From UHGV virus genome UHGV-1497419: DNA of 64,000 bases. One strand, given 5' to 3'. Shown in pieces: positions 3,086-52,303 of the stretch. Made by a program: the position numbers and the translations under genes. Below the pieces are notes generated by a model. That model did no database searches. It saw only the letters and a list, made by a program, of their open reading frames with translations, and was not told the origin of the DNA. Source of the stretch: a virus. How positions within the stretch are numbered: position 1 is the stretch's first letter; every line of letters starts with the position of its first letter.

Positions 3086-3781
3086 TCAATGTTTAACTAA
3101 CATGGTTTTAATGTGTGGAAGGATTCTGTTCACCTTCTGCACATTCTTCTCTGTATCTTCTATAAAGCATACTATATTAAAGTAAGGCAGAATGCAAGAC
3201 TGAATCATCCTCACTTTCAAACTTTCTGCACTTATAGAGTTAGCCCCAAAACCACGCATAAAAAGCATGTAGTCATGCTCTGTGTTATGCCTTAAAAACA
3301 TCTCAGTAGGTATTCTCTGAGATTCACCTCTCGCTGTCAAGAGTCCAACAGCAGCATGATTAGCAATTGCATCAATGATATTGAAAACATACGTTGGCTT
3401 TGCTCTTACAGAATCAAGAAGATTGGTATACTGTGAGAATGAACCATCAGTCAATTCCGTTGAGCAATCTTCGTGATTAAAATTTGTAAGAACACCATCA
3501 ATATCTGCTAAGATGAGATTCCCTTTTTCTACAAGGTCTTTATTGACTATGACTAAGCTATCACGACTTACACCTATAGTTTGTCCAGTCTCTTTATCTA
3601 CAACATTCACAATTGGCTCTGATGTGTGAAACTCTTCTAGTGAACATACAACTTCTCTTGCAGTGTCTTCAAAATCCCTACACTGTTCTGGAGTCCATAC
3701 ACAGGAATCAAGACCTAACTCATGAGGATGTAAGTCATAAGCATGACACAGTACTTCATCAGACTTTCTTAATTTTTTCAT
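3086..3781 (-). CDS. HAD-superfamily phosphatase (possible nucleotidase)
   Basis: HAD motif I-like ILADIDGVLT; T5-like phages encode a HAD deoxynucleotidase, so this is a plausible analogue (inference). Confidence 0.4.
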   Translation of the reverse strand: MKKLRKSDEVLCHAYDLHPHELGLDSCVWTPEQCRDFEDTAREVVCSLEEFHTSEPIVNVVDKETGQTIGVSRDSLVIVNKDLVEKGNLILADIDGVLTNFNHEDCSTELTDGSFSQYTNLLDSVRAKPTYVFNIIDAIANHAAVGLLTARGESQRIPTEMFLRHNTEHDYMLFMRGFGANSISAESLKVRMIQSCILPYFNIVCFIEDTEKNVQKVNRILPHIKTMLVKH

Positions 3782-39984: not shown

Positions 39985-40020
39985 AACAAAAAAGGCTCCC
40001 GTAAAAAGGAGCCTTAAATT
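39984..40020. terminator. bidirectional rho-independent terminator (AGGCTCC-cgtaaaaa-GGAGCCT with A-run upstream and T-rich downstream)
   Basis: Perfect 7-bp stem at the convergent junction between thyA (+) and the 40021 gene (-). Confidence 0.6.
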
Positions 40021-40392
40021 TTATCTTTCAGTATTCTTTGTGTTCTTTTCAGTAATAGCTTGCAAGGCTGATACTGATTGAGCCAGATTGTTCACACTGT
40101 CAGAGAATTTATCGAGAGTCTTAGTAAGTTTTGCGTTTTCACCCTTAACATTCTCTAACTGAACTTTCTGGTTCTCCATCCCTAGCTGAATCAGTCTCAT
40201 GTCAGACTGTAAATCACGAATAGCTGAGTAATTAGATTTGCTATAATTATCTAGCTGCTGTAACTTTGTTGTGACAGACACTTCTTGCTTACCATCCGAA
40301 ACTTGCATGGTGGTATACATCCCAATAACACTAAAAATACCAACTACAATTGCACCAATATTATTTTTAAAAGCTTCCTCTAGCCACTTCAT
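40021..40392 (-). CDS. hypothetical membrane-anchored coiled-coil protein
   Basis: TM segment IGAIVVGIFSVIGMY then a helical charged region; last gene of the structural operon. Confidence 0.35.
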   Translation of the reverse strand: MKWLEEAFKNNIGAIVVGIFSVIGMYTTMQVSDGKQEVSVTTKLQQLDNYSKSNYSAIRDLQSDMRLIQLGMENQKVQLENVKGENAKLTKTLDKFSDSVNNLAQSVSALQAITEKNTKNTER

Positions 40393-40587
40393 TTATTTCT
40401 CCCCCTTAAAAGCTTTTTCTAAGTTATCTACGAACTCATCATCAATAGGTGTGTCTGTTTTACTCGCAAGGTATCTTGCAAGCTTAAAGAACACTTTCTC
40501 AATCATGTATTCACTTAGAAGGGATAAAATGAGTTTCCAGAAGAAGCTACCTAGATTTTTTAGAAGAATTGCTAGGATTGTAGGCAT
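40393..40587 (-). CDS. hypothetical small membrane protein
   Basis: 64 aa with N-terminal hydrophobic segment. Confidence 0.3.
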   Translation of the reverse strand: MPTILAILLKNLGSFFWKLILSLLSEYMIEKVFFKLARYLASKTDTPIDDEFVDNLEKAFKGEK

Positions 40588-40666: not shown

Positions 40667-43051
40667 TTAAGCAGTTCTTACCCAAGCCATTAACTTATAG
40701 AACTGGTTAGTAACACTAAATGCTGAACCAGAACCAGTACCACCTGTGTTACCACTAACTGTATGGGTGTGAGCACCAATACCTACAGAGTGGGTGTGAG
40801 CACCAGTGTTACTTGTAGTACCAGACCATGTGTGTGTATGGTTACCAGTTGTGTTAGTGTTAGGGAACTTGTTATCAGTTCTGTCAAGCCAGTCAAGAGT
40901 TCTCGTCTTGTTATTGCTAACAGTTGTATAACCGTACTGAGCATCACCACCATTAACCAATAGCAGACCTAAGTGGTGAGCGTGGTTACCAGCAGCACTT
41001 GTTGTGCCACTTACAGAGTGAGTATGACCACCAGTGCTATTAGTGCTCTTCGTACCATAATCGAAAGACGAAGTGGTAGCAGAGAAACTATGGGTGTGTG
41101 ATGGTAAGTTACCAACAGCTAACGTCACAGAGTCTGAACCGCCTGTTGTAGCAACATCTGAACCATTTGCTGCTGCAATTCTGATAGTTCTACCAACACC
41201 ATTGTTCAGGTACGTCCAAGTTAACCCAGGAAGTGCTGTATTAGGGTCAACATTACTGTTAAACCACGTTACAATACCTACTGGATAGATTTTATTAAGG
41301 TCTGTAGAGTCACTTACTGCCTGTGCAATCTTCTGGTCAGTTTCAGCTTTAGTGTATGCACCAATCTCTGAAGGGTTTGGTCTCTGAGCTTCAGTGTAAA
41401 CCTTAGACCATTCAGCCTCAAAACCCTGCCTATCTCTGGCTGTTCTATACCATAAACCACTATTCCTGTAATCAAACCTTAATTGTGCAGTTGGTGTTGA
41501 TGCTAACATATTAGCGAATAGGTGTAAGACTAAACGGCTTGAACCACCACCCTTGATAGTCTCTACATAAATTCCTGAAGGTTGGTTCCAAGCCACACCA
41601 CCATCAGACTCCTCCACTAAAGCTCTGGATGCTGACCATAAGTACTTTGCATCGGTTGCAGATTTAACGTAGTATCTATCATCTAAGTTAGACCAATCAG
41701 ATGGTTGTACCTGACCAGTGATTCTAACAGTTTTATTCAGTAAGAAATCACTCCCCATGTAAATGGTGGTAGCAGTCCTGTCATTGTGAATAATGAGTCT
41801 GGTCGGGTCTGCTGTTTCTCCATTCCCAATATACCACCTTCTCACATCGTCAGCATTATGGGCAGAGAGATACACCTCTTTATCCTGAATAGTATTCCTT
41901 AGTTGCAATAATGGGCCATTCTGTTTAATAACCTGTGCAGACCTGAAAGTGTTTACATCACTTAGCTTAGCAAGATTACTCAAAGTTCCTGCTGGAATAT
42001 ATCTAGAGTCGATGTTAGTCCAATCAGAAGGTTGAACTTGACCAGTGATTTGGACTGTTCTGCTCATGGCAATGGTGTTACCTAGTGAGATTTGTGTATT
42101 TGCTAAGTAGTTATAGATGTTTACAGTGTTTTCATCGGTATCATTACCAATATACCACTTACGAGTTCCATCTGATTTTTTTGCTTGGATATACAAAGCA
42201 GCAGTTGTATCTACATTTTGCAGAGTGATAGCATTAGCATTCTTCTTAACAACAAAGTTAGTGAAAATATTAGAGCCACTAAAAGTATTATCACCAGCTA
42301 ACTGTGCAAATCTCTGATTAGCTACTGTCTGAGTAAAGTATCTAGCATCTAAGTTAGAGAAGTCAGAAGGTTGAACTTGACCCATGACTCTTAGTGTCTT
42401 GTTAAATGACGCTGTTGCGTCAAGGGTTAACATTGAGCCAGTGGCATGATTGTACAGATAAACATTAGTGTTGTTTGCATTTCCCTGTCCAACATACCAC
42501 GTTTGCTGGTTATTAGCATCTCTACCCTGAATATATGAAGCTCCTGCATTAGTTGCTTTCTTAAGGGTTAACTGCTCACCATCAGTTACAATTGCTTGCC
42601 TAATGTTGAAGTTATTTGTTACAGCCAGCCTTGCATATCTTGCATCATTCTCTTCATTAGTTCTCATCCCAAGTTCATTAGGGCTTGGTTTATTCAGAGT
42701 ATGATAAACAGTTGCCGACCTTGAAGCATCTGCAATAGTTAGCTTAAGACCGTTTGCGTTAATTTTAAAAGTCTTTAAAACATCCCCGATAGTAATCTCA
42801 GAAGAACCTGTTGGGTCAAATACTGCCTTACCGCCATAGAGTAACTTAACAATCCCTAAGTCACCTGTCATAGTACTACCAGCAATCTGAACAAATCTCT
42901 CAAGTTTAAAAGATGCTAAGAAGTCTTGATAGGTCATTCGACGGTCTTCATCACCCAGCATTTCAGGTCTCTTTTTAACTCTGACATGAAGAAGGTCATC
43001 TGAACGGATTGTATCGATTGAGTTTAATTCACTCAATTTGTAATCTGCCAT
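40667..43051 (-). CDS. tail fibre protein with three ~95-aa internal repeats and a C-terminal His-x-His-rich tip
   Basis: Repeats carrying VQPSD(F/W)(S/T)N(L/I)D(A/S/D)RY; C-terminal [31 protein letters not shown]; ATG at 43051. Confidence 0.6.
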
Positions 43052-43097
43052 TATAAATTTTCCTCTCAAAAGGGGCTATAAAGCCCCTGTAAAGAAA

Positions 43098-44285
43098 TTA
43101 AGCTGTTCTCTGCCATACATACAGTACGAAGGATGGCTGCTCAATGTTGAAAGCTTGTCCACCACCAACACTATTCGTGTTTCCACTATGTGTATGCTCA
43201 GAAGAAGAAACTGTCACAGTACCGTTGTGTGTATGTGAACCAATACCAACTGTATGGCTATGAGCACCAATACCCACTGTGTGATTGTGGTTACCAGTTG
43301 TGTTAGTGGTAACGCTAAAAGAGTGGGTGTGCGAACCAGCGACTTCGCAGACAGCATCTGCTGAGTACCACGATTGGTCATTCCTTGTAGACCAAACCAT
43401 TGCAGGTCTTTCCGACAGACCACCACCTGCTTCATAAGTCAATCTGTGGTTGTGAGCACCAGCAGCACTTGTTGACCCACTACCAACGTGATTGTGGTTA
43501 CCAGTTGTGTTAGTGGTCTTTGTTCCATAGTCAAAAGAGTTGGTAGTCTTAGTTCCATAGTCAAAAGCTGAGATTGAAACAGTTGCATTATGAGTGTGAC
43601 CACCACCACTGAGAGACACAGAGTGTGAGTGTTGAGGCATATTATTAACTGACAAAGTGACAGTTGAAGCACCAAATACAGAACCTGCTGGCCTTGTATC
43701 AGAGTCATAACCAACCAACGCCATACCTTTTGAAACTAACTCCCAAGTACCTCCACAAATTAAGTATGTAGAGGGGTTTGCAGAGTTCATCGAAAGATGG
43801 ATAGTACCTACTGGATAAGAAGCCTGAACAGCCTTGTACAAGTTATTTACTGCTCTTGCTGTAGCATACTTATCTGCATCCTCGTTATACAGGTTAGATG
43901 TTGTCCAGTTCTGAACATTACTTAAACCAACCTGTGCCTTAGTTGTATTGTGTGGGTTACTCTTGTCCTTGATATGTTGCTGGACAAGGCTATTAACCTC
44001 TTCTGAAGACATAATCTGTAGATTTGCTCTTGCCTCAGCTACATTAACAATATCTGATAAGTTATTTGCAGCAACTAACTGAAGAGCATTAATAACATTA
44101 TCTAAACCAATTTGTGTTTTAGTAACACCATGAGGGTTATTTTTTAGGCTTGCGTGTGGAGCAAGTAATTGCTCAAGAGTACACCTCTTATCCTCAATAC
44201 CCTGCTTAAGATGGAAGATATCACTAAGGTCAATTGGTAAGGCTGCTTGAGGCAAGGCACTAATTTGAATTTCACCTACTGCCAT
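43098..44285 (-). CDS. tail fibre protein 2 with His-x-His repeats
   Basis: N-terminal T(K)xQ(I/V)GL(D/S)NV repeats; HxH clusters; C-terminal ...LYVWQRTA parallels ...LMAWVRTA of the longer fibre. Confidence 0.55.
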   Translation of the reverse strand: MAVGEIQISALPQAALPIDLSDIFHLKQGIEDKRCTLEQLLAPHASLKNNPHGVTKTQIGLDNVINALQLVAANNLSDIVNVAEARANLQIMSSEEVNSLVQQHIKDKSNPHNTTKAQVGLSNVQNWTTSNLYNEDADKYATARAVNNLYKAVQASYPVGTIHLSMNSANPSTYLICGGTWELVSKGMALVGYDSDTRPAGSVFGASTVTLSVNNMPQHSHSVSLSGGGHTHNATVSISAFDYGTKTTNSFDYGTKTTNTTGNHNHVGSGSTSAAGAHNHRLTYEAGGGLSERPAMVWSTRNDQSWYSADAVCEVAGSHTHSFSVTTNTTGNHNHTVGIGAHSHTVGIGSHTHNGTVTVSSSEHTHSGNTNSVGGGQAFNIEQPSFVLYVWQRTA

Positions 44286-44287
44286 TA

Positions 44288-52303
<8,016 letters not shown>

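Follow-up and report, generated by a model that had tools for sequence, protein, structure and literature searches.

Short and long tail fibers of a Felix O1-like phage genome and the T4 gp37-type tip architecture proposed for both

Tail fibers of Felix O1-like phages and the gene pair in the window

That the C-termini of the Felix O1 fibers are similar to T4 gp37 was already pointed out in 2010 (Whichard et al. 2010, PMC3185647), and a cryo-EM study of Bas63 (Escherichia phage JohannRWettstein; Sci Adv 2025, PMC12609058) described a collar-needle-head topology for its short (STF) and long (LTF) tail fibers, with the trimeric needle at domain-level resolution only. The Bas63 structure shows the STF attached to wedge protein 2, at the D2 domain of gp23, and the LTF attached to a small platform protein encoded just upstream, the trimeric gp25 (PMC12609058). 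In T4 gp37, the collar D10 is formed by residues 811-881 and 1010-1026, the needle D11 is inserted in D10, and His residues, which are essential, bind seven irons (Islam et al. 2019, PMC6957217). The LPS core is the receptor for the genus, according to the literature (PMC8594841). The identity of these fibers and the architecture of their tips were, thus, already known from the Felix O1 genome in 2010 and the Bas63 cryo-EM in 2025.

The window analyzed here, i.e., the whole stretch of 64,000 nucleotides, is a piece of a Felixounavirus genome; E. coli phage vB_EcoM_LMP34 is 95% identical to it at the nt level. Its gene order is that of Bas63, namely wedge 2, wedge 1, platform, STF, LTF, two small ORFs, and thyA on the opposite strand, and the two fiber genes, which are orthologous to Bas63 gp26 and gp27, hold this conserved position beside the baseplate wedge and platform genes (Table 1). 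The STF exhibited 99.2% aa identity to the "tail fiber protein" of ECP2307 and 77.9% to Bas63 gp26; the corresponding values for the LTF were 97.5% to the LMP34 tail fiber and 73% to Bas63 gp27, and phrog_4277 covered the LTF end to end. The two genes are the short and long tail fibers of a Felix O1-like myovirus infecting E. coli, and the original prediction that both encode tail fibers was borne out by orthology and by the homology to the T4 gp37 tip described below.

The longest ORF of the LTF (40667-43069) comprises 800 aa and opens at a TTG codon. The true start is the ATG at 43051, because it is annotated so in close relatives, GAGAGGA lies 5' of this ATG, and the TTG lies inside the tail of the intergenic hairpin; the 794-aa numbering is used for the LTF in Table 1. 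The hairpin itself is probably a weak terminator or attenuator, as judged from its sequence. The equivalent site in phage wV8 is annotated as a Rho-independent terminator, and a simple terminator scan did not call the hairpin at 43071-43088. Plus-strand ORFs of 66-71 aa inside the fiber genes were rejected as mechanical antisense ORFs, without annotation in modern relatives, and a tRNA scan of the window found none.

Table 1. Fiber genes, fiber domains, and neighboring features in the window
Feature	Coordinates (nt)	Strand	Description
STF gene	43098..44285	-	395-aa ORF; orthologue of Bas63 gp26 and Felix O1 gp76
STF aa 1-140	43866..44285	-	N-terminal baseplate-binding part and helical stalk; 80-94% mean identity to 10 orthologues
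STF aa 141-222	43620..43865	-	First collar part (gp10/gp12/gp37 D10 fold), ending with the first HxH, HSH 219-221
STF aa 223-280	43446..43619	-	Needle ascending arm; HxH 230, 264, 278; tandem FDYGTKTTN duplication
STF aa 281-318	43332..43445	-	Hypervariable head (tip); aligns with T4 gp37 tip 932-959
STF aa 319-366	43188..43331	-	Needle descending arm; HxH 319, 333, 342, 351, 364
STF aa 367-395 + stop	43098..43187	-	C-terminal motif GGGQAFNIEQPSFVLYVWQRTA; predicted strand returning to complete the collar
Intergenic hairpin	43071..43088	-	AGGGGC-TTTATA-GCCCCT, then TTT; between STF and LTF genes; read from the sequence
LTF gene	40667..43051	-	794 aa from ATG 43051; orthologue of Bas63 gp27 and Felix O1 gp77
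LTF aa 1-131	42659..43051	-	Conserved N-terminal baseplate-binding domain; 88-96% mean identity to orthologues
LTF aa 132-460	41672..42658	-	Three tandem repeats: 132-238, 239-351, 352-460
LTF aa 484-583	41303..41602	-	gp37_C-type knob; common to P2 H, Mu S, and P1 S fibers
LTF aa 584-654	41090..41302	-	First collar part, ending with HTH 652-654; 87-94% conserved
LTF aa 655-692	40976..41089	-	Needle ascending arm; HxH 676, 690; HAHH 690-693
LTF aa 693-737	40841..40975	-	Hypervariable head (tip); identity to orthologues 0.37-0.51
LTF aa 738-763	40763..40840	-	Needle descending arm; HxH 738, 752, 761
LTF aa 764-794 + stop	40667..40762	-	C-terminal motif, predicted collar-closing strand; aligns with gp37 C-terminus
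Needle-plus-head cassette	40758..41065	-	LTF nt 1987-2294; common with Tequatrovirus gp37
100-aa protein	44288..44590	-	Orthologue of Bas63 gp25; synteny with bas63_0025; phrog_4141
Baseplate wedge 2	45450..46919	-	Orthologue of Bas63 gp23; Pfam Baseplate_J; synteny

HxH motifs and domain map of the two fibers

Both fibers carry the dense C-terminal HxH clusters that had been predicted. The STF contains nine HxH motifs, all in aa 219-366, as compared with a mean of 1.4 and a maximum of six in shuffled sequences, and the LTF contains six, all in aa 658-769 (800-aa numbering), as compared with a mean of 0.42 and a maximum of four in 2000 shuffles. A phmmer search against the PDB matched the crystallized T4 gp37 tip (2XGF, residues 785-1026) to STF 146-367 (E = 5.4e-26) and to LTF 653-779 (E = 7.3e-20), and the matches take in both HxH arms of each fiber. 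The suspected likeness to the metal-coordinating HxH needle of gp37 is, therefore, true homology. In a three-way alignment, the HxH motifs of the fibers were in register with T4 H883, H915, H929, H966, H980, H989, and H998. Both fibers show the gp37-type arrangement, with HxH motifs on an ascending arm (including the motif that ends the first collar part) and on a descending arm, and a short non-repetitive head between them. Among 65 homologues, the most distant of them about 30% identical, STF residues H319, H321, H342, H344, H351, and H353 were invariant. The likeness to T4 gp12, which had also been proposed, extends to the common collar fold but not to the HxH needle: gp12 has one HxH (HKH 445-447), and BLASTP of both fibers of the window against it found nothing significant, so that the comparison draws only on the collar fold known from the literature.

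The roles assigned to the N-terminal parts of both fibers are taken from the Bas63 cryo-EM study (PMC12609058). The stalk of the STF contains two NPHxxTKxQxGLxNV repeats (aa 50-66 and 110-126), and its first collar part matched Pfam Gp10_C and T4 gp10 441-533 and aligned with T4 gp37 811-885. Identity to orthologues dropped to 0.27-0.38 in the STF head, as compared with 0.65-0.9 in the rest of the protein. For the longer fiber, three internal repeats of about 95 aa had been predicted; the number was right, but the unit is 107-113 aa (pairwise identity 30-41%, E 5e-20 to 1e-24). BLASTP of the whole LTF and STF against themselves missed these repeats, which were recovered by cutting the sequence at the GQVQPSD linkers. 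Each repeat ends with the conserved linker GQVQPSDxxNxDxRY, and it is the bodies that are variable. Pfam gp37_trimer (PF20744) gave three matches on the LTF (E = 1.4e-51), and LTF aa 164-231 (800-aa numbering) matched T7 gp17 (4A0T). The knob that follows matched PF12604 (E = 3.6e-14) and the Mu fiber S (PDB 8JU3, E = 2.9e-21), with tblastn matches among P2-, Mu-, and P1-type fibers.

The shared C-terminal motif, the variable heads, and cassette exchange

A similar C-terminal motif is indeed present in both fibers, with 9 of the last 22 residues identical, and it lies within a wider paralogy of LTF 572-800 (800-aa numbering) and STF 140-395 (33% identity, BLASTP E = 1e-36). The comparison across related phages, which had been proposed as a check, showed that the motif is near-invariant in 11 STF and 8 LTF orthologues across Ounavirinae (identical in 6 of the 7 LTF orthologues compared), whereas the region between the HxH arms is hypervariable. 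Because the motif aligned with the last 17 residues of T4 gp37 (1010-1026, in the collar D10) and with the C-terminus of T4 gp10 (...QPYITVYRWIRIA), and because it is near-invariant, it appears to supply the gp10/gp12/gp37 collar fold with its last strand and not to be a receptor-binding part. The STF matched Gp10_C (PF21939) with 67.4 bits (gathering cut-off 27, E = 3e-18; E = 7.7e-19 without the needle), and the LTF, which scored 21.5 bits at full length, below the cut-off, reached 28.3 bits (E = 3.7e-6) when the needle insert was removed. On the needle-deleted chimeras, Pfam Collar (PF07484) gave no match and the related Gp10_C model alone matched; more distant homologues carry PF07484 Collar and PF03335 Phage_fiber. 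An AF2 model of the STF monomer from the 65-sequence alignment was of low confidence (mean pLDDT 61, pTM 0.26), with the highest pLDDT at the collar and the last six residues (85 for the C-terminal motif), and a Foldseek search of the PDB with this low-confidence monomer returned only weak matches from the gp10 family (E = 0.03-0.08), 2XGF not being among them.

The original prediction had taken the roughly 25-residue motif for a receptor-binding tip duplicated or exchanged between the two fibers, which would imply one common receptor. The similarity of the motifs and the paralogy of the C-terminal 230-256 aa or so are in keeping with such an event, and the fibers of Felix O1 do carry nearly identical heads (29/31 aa; 81% nt identity over 270 nt). 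However, the motif does not vary among phages of Salmonella, E. coli, and Erwinia and, therefore, cannot encode specificity, and its alignment partners are the collar-closing C-termini of gp37 and gp10; further, the heads of the window phage (38 aa in the STF and 45 aa in the LTF) showed no similarity, and the two genes resembled each other at the DNA level only in stretches of 34-81 nt located at the HxH strands. We, therefore, consider a duplicated tip very improbable and prefer the motif as a collar strand.

The receptor-contacting parts are presumably the hypervariable heads, STF aa 281-318 and LTF aa 693-737, as their variability among orthologues suggests. Because the two heads differ, the two fibers probably see different epitopes. 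Records with the STF head type numbered 32, all of them of Felixounavirus type, while the LTF head type occurred in 22 Felixounavirus records at at least 95% identity and in Tequatrovirus gp37 at 82-86%, its Tequatrovirus carriers including SHBML-50-1, AV122, BYEP01, and sutha; some 30 Felixounavirus genomes (E. coli and Shigella phages) have both head types as a pair. The two genes make up the part of the genome that is variable and mosaic, which fits the prediction that they are host-range determinants.

The needle-plus-head cassette of the LTF and gp37 of the Tequatrovirus Shigella phage SHBML-50-1 share 84.4% nt identity over 308 nt; the flanking collars are of different types, and the borders of the cassette fall in SSFDYGTK and GIGAHTHTV. 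The FDYGTK and GIGAHxH strands around the head thus appear to be homology patches for swapping needle-head cassettes between phages. One could go further and suppose that the HxH strands are kept mainly as such recombination linkers ("His boxes") rather than for metal binding, a reading in line with these borders and with the HxH strands being the only DNA similarity between the two fiber genes of the window. We regard it as highly unlikely, since the His residues are invariant at the protein level in the 65 homologues, which indicates selection on the residues and not just on the DNA, and the iron-binding His residues are essential in T4 (PMC6957217). Because the linker and metal roles are compatible, a His-box function would be an added role of the metal-binding needle and not a true alternative to it.

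Two chaperones, gp38 (Tfa type) and gp57A, are required by T4 gp37. A tblastn search of the window with these T4 proteins detected no homologue (best E = 0.09), and none of the 348 and 797 phage records with a match to them was a "Felixounavirus" record. Fiber folding must, therefore, differ in some respect from that of T4, and chaperone dependence belongs to the T4 system as an accessory feature rather than to the fold. We tentatively suggest, though at somewhat less than even odds, that fairly recent recombination via FDYGTK and GIGAHxH moved the cassette between Felixounavirus and T4-like phages and, because Felixounaviruses lack detectable gp38 and gp57A, that it folds without T4 chaperones or with an unrecognized helper; possible helpers are a host factor or either of the conserved small downstream ORFs (40393-40587 and 40021-40392). 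If so, host-range engineering would gain in the LTF cassette a portable receptor-binding module that needs no T4 chaperones. A length of about 20 residues is far below that of known intramolecular chaperone domains. That the C-terminal motif is such a chaperone, cleaved after trimerization as in endosialidase-type and T5 L-shaped fibers, is the least credible reading of all: a built-in folding aid is conceivable where no gp38/Tfa- or gp57A-type gene is detected, but Pfam gave no Peptidase_S74 or other chaperone domain (E <= 0.01), the motif has some 20 aa as compared with about 100 aa or more for a Peptidase_S74-type domain, the homologous gp37 residues 1010-1026 belong to D10 of the mature structure (PMC6957217) and lie within the crystallized construct, and the chain returns to the collar in Bas63 (PMC12609058).

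Proposed architecture and comparison with known systems

Taken together, these data make it very probable that the two proteins are a Felixounavirus STF and LTF, both with a collar-needle-head tip of the T4 gp37 type. Each fiber would be a homotrimer whose conserved N-terminal domain plugs into the baseplate, and the shaft of the LTF would consist of three gp37_trimer-type repeats and a Mu/P2-type knob. In the tip, each chain is predicted to build most of the collar (gp10/gp12/gp37 D10 fold), to leave it and extend outward as one strand of a six-stranded needle, to form a small head at the far end, and then to double back along the needle so that its last 20 residues or so complete the collar. 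By analogy with T4 gp37 and the Bas63 cryo-EM, from which we infer the intertwined trimer and the octahedral metal sites, each HxH of the three chains would provide six imidazoles for one such site on the fiber axis, and up to nine sites in the STF and six in the LTF may staple the needle (the metal is iron in T4). Recognition of the receptor, for which the LPS core is inferred from the genus, would reside in the hypervariable head.

As a discovery, this reading carries small weight; what it offers in practice is a precise map for this phage. Efforts in host-range engineering or prediction should aim at the heads (nt 43332-43445 and 40841-40975) and not at the C-terminal motif. The likeness of the LTF cassette to Tequatrovirus gp37 and the lack of a detected gp38 or gp57A homologue are side results that were new to us, and a cross-family cassette together with the apparent lack of T4-type chaperones offers a modest lead for fiber engineering.

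As compared with T4, the homology of the window fibers to gp37 spans the collar, the needle, and the HxH motifs, of which gp37 has seven as compared with nine in the STF and six in the LTF. However, the T4 fiber is made of four proteins (gp34-37), whereas the tip in the window phage would sit on a much shorter single-protein fiber directly on the baseplate. The C-terminal collar strand of the window fibers is longer than that of gp37 and closer to that of gp10, whose C-terminus (...NIQPYITVYRWIRIA) is close to the fiber sequence ...NIEQPSFVLYVWQRTA; gp10 belongs to the same collar fold family but is without the HxH needle. Bas63 (PMC12609058) has orthologous STF and LTF with the same tip on both fibers, and its LTF likewise has six HxH with an extra adjacent His, arranged as HHxH in Bas63 and as HAHH in the window. 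The nine HxH of the window STF are shared with Felix O1 and wV8, whereas Bas63 and SUSP2 have seven, a third YDYG repeat replacing the ascending HxH 264 and 278 of the window STF; both heads of Bas63 are of different sequence types from those of the window. Felix O1 gp76 and gp77 (PMC3185647) exhibited 78% and 63% aa identity to the window STF and LTF, respectively, but Felix O1 carries the same head on both fibers, whereas the window phage carries two different heads.

Genomic setting of the two fibre genes

The window was assigned to the genus Felixounavirus by megablast (241 phage records matched), and the Escherichia phages vB_EcoM_LMP34, LMP33, and LMP25 showed 95% nucleotide identity across the whole region. 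The gene order was that of Bas63 (JohannRWettstein), Felix O1, wV8, and others, namely baseplate wedge 2 (489 aa), wedge 1 (285 aa), a 100-aa protein, the short tail fibre (STF), and the long tail fibre (LTF), followed by two small ORFs and then thymidylate synthase on the opposite strand. In relatives, LTF starts at the ATG equivalent to position 43051, which gives 794 aa, and GAGAGGA lies 5' of this codon. Because the TTG that opens the longer reading frame at 43069 sits within the tail of the hairpin between the two fibre genes, the ATG is the likely start. The same hairpin may attenuate the expression of LTF relative to STF.

Features of the fibre region and domain limits of the two tips (LTF residues in the 794-aa numbering)
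Feature	Window position (nt)	Strand	STF residues	LTF residues	Basis or remark
STF gene, 395 aa	43098-44285	minus			ORF
Hairpin between STF and LTF	43071-43088				annotated terminator in wV8; only three T residues then follow
LTF gene, 800 aa counted from TTG	40667-43069	minus			ORF; adjoins the 395-aa gene
Small ORF, 64 aa	40393-40587	minus			hydrophobic; phrog_402; conserved, directly downstream of LTF
Small ORF, 123 aa	40021-40392	minus			phrog_4038; N-terminal transmembrane segment and coiled coil; conserved
Terminator-like hairpin	39992-40015				T-runs on both strands
Collar, first part			141-222	584-654	alignment to gp37
Ascending arm			223-280	655-692	alignment to gp37
Head			281-318	693-737	alignment to gp37
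Descending arm			319-366	738-763	alignment to gp37
Collar-closing strand			367-395	764-794	alignment to gp37

The 123-aa ORF carries the label "holin" in some relatives, without evidence. The strong bidirectional hairpin beyond it (AAGGCTCCC...GGGAGCCTT) forms the junction of the minus-strand structural block with the plus-strand thyA/DHFR block, and the sign of the GC skew flips near 30 kb and near 40 kb, in agreement with the strand switches of the gene blocks. No tRNA genes were found within the 64-kb window (1-64000), and 22 are reported for Felix O1; the tRNA cluster is presumably located outside the window.

gp37-like needles and the repeats of the long fibre

The original prediction described dense C-terminal His-x-His (HxH) clusters in both fibres, of a metal-binding type resembling T4 gp37, and the analysis bore this out. 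STF contains nine HxH motifs (shuffled mean 1.4, maximum 6) and LTF six (shuffled mean 0.42, maximum 4 in 2000 shuffles), every one of them within the C-terminal 110-150 residues. Both C-termini matched the crystallised receptor-binding tip of T4 gp37, 2XGF (E = 5e-26 for STF and 7e-20 for LTF), the N-terminal portion of each tip matched the Gp10_C (collar) family, and remoter homologues in a large protein database carried Collar PF07484 and Phage_fiber PF03335. In a three-way alignment with T4 gp37 785-1026, the fibre motifs lined up with the seven of T4, at H883, 915, 929, 966, 980, 989, and 998. The T4 collar, D10, comprises residues 811-881 and 1010-1026, and the needle, D11 (882-1009), is inserted into it, with its tip around 932-959 and seven iron atoms held by His residues (Islam et al. 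2019, PMC6957217). The domain limits in the table are those of T4 gp37 carried across via the alignment. An AF2 monomer model of STF was weak (pLDDT 61), with marginal Foldseek matches to the gp10 family only; a trimeric state and metal coordination of both tips are predicted from homology together with the Bas63 and T4 structures.

The three internal repeats noted earlier in LTF were recovered (aa 132-238, 239-351, and 352-460), with a unit of 107-113 aa and not the ~95 aa first given. They share 30-41% pairwise identity (E 5e-20 to 1e-24), each is closed by GQVQPSDxxNxDxRY, and Pfam assigned gp37_trimer three times; in an orthologue alignment the repeat bodies were variable and the linkers conserved. 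Residues 484-583 form a gp37_C-type knob common to the Mu S, P2 H, and P1 S fibres, and some relatives carry a different knob. The wV8 long fibre (848 aa; sequence L005, 4723-7269) has another knob, a 67-aa head, and only four HxH motifs, so putative metal sites vary in number among members of the genus. The unit FDYGTKTTN occurs as a tandem duplicate in STF (aa 243-262, nt about 43500-43559), once in LTF, twice in T4 gp37, and three times in the short fibres of Bas63 and SUSP2, where the third copy takes the place of two HxH motifs in the ascending arm and leaves seven rather than nine.

The C-terminal motif and the heads

The C-terminal regions of STF and LTF were paralogous across ~230-256 residues (33% identity, E = 1e-36), and their last 22 residues, nine of them identical, are simply the terminus of this longer alignment. 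T4 gp10 and gp37 end in ...NIQPYITVYRWIRIA and ...KNIAFNYIVRLA, and the two window fibres in ...NIEQPSFVLYVWQRTA and in a further string of 15 residues. Among 11 STF and 8 LTF orthologues, taken from phages that infect E. coli, Salmonella, Shigella, and Erwinia, the motif was almost invariant, and identity fell exactly between both HxH arms (0.27-0.38 at STF 281-320 and 0.37-0.51 at LTF 681-740). Taken together, these comparisons identify the motif as the predicted strand closing the collar, not the receptor-binding tip. The likeness seen in the ~25-residue motif thus held, and its reading as a duplicated or exchanged receptor-binding tip did not: the strand is near-invariant, and the STF head (38 aa) and LTF head (45 aa) were unrelated when compared. 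There is no sign that the motif is a chaperone that gets cleaved off; a Pfam search detected no domain of that kind in either fibre.

The proposed relevance of both fibres to host range was upheld. Their collar and needle scaffold is paralogous, with DNA similarity confined to patches of 34-81 nt within the HxH strands. The two head types are paired in about 30 genomes of felixounaviruses of E. coli and Shigella. STF is 99.2% identical to its counterpart in ECP2307, and LTF 97.5% to that of LMP34 (the next at most 74% among the matches listed, a spread sample), which indicates mosaic inheritance.

Tip exchange and comparison with known systems

In Felix O1 (sequence L003, 3501-4667 and 4718-7066), STF and LTF carry a near-identical head (29/31 aa) and share 81% nucleotide identity over 270 nt spanning needle and head. 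The pattern suggests that gene conversion has taken place within a single genome, from one fibre gene to the other, so intragenomic tip exchange occurs in the genus, though not in the window.

The LTF head type was also found in Tequatrovirus gp37 (SHBML-50-1, AV122, BYEP01, and sutha). LTF nt 1987-2294 (window 40758-41065) were 84.4% identical over 308 nt to SHBML-50-1 gp37 (sequence L013, about 3414-3721), and the flanking collars were unrelated, being of T4 type in SHBML-50-1 and of Felix type in the window. By this comparison, the needle-head cassette appears clearly to have been exchanged across phage families. Its borders lie within SSFDYGTK and GIGAHTHTV, which fits the old idea, reportedly of Tétart and Krisch, that recombination in T-even adhesins uses the conserved His-containing strands as linkers. 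T4 gp37 requires gp38 and gp57A; although the tips are gp37-like, a search of the window and of records under the name Felixounavirus turned up no homologue of gp38 (Tfa type) or gp57A.

That gp76 and gp77 of Felix O1 resemble T4 gp37 at their C-termini has been reported before (Whichard et al. 2010). Cryo-EM of Bas63 revealed an STF of 430 Å attached to wedge 2 and an LTF of 630 Å attached to a gp9-like platform, both with a collar, HxH needle, and head as in T4 gp37 and a chain that doubles back to the collar, and receptor-binding tips that vary strongly across the genus (PMC12609058). The genus is reported to rely on the LPS core and not on protein receptors (PMC8594841). Given Whichard et al. 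and the Bas63 structure, two fibres with gp37-like tips are not a new finding, and only details set the window apart from Bas63: nine rather than seven HxH motifs in STF, and different head types.
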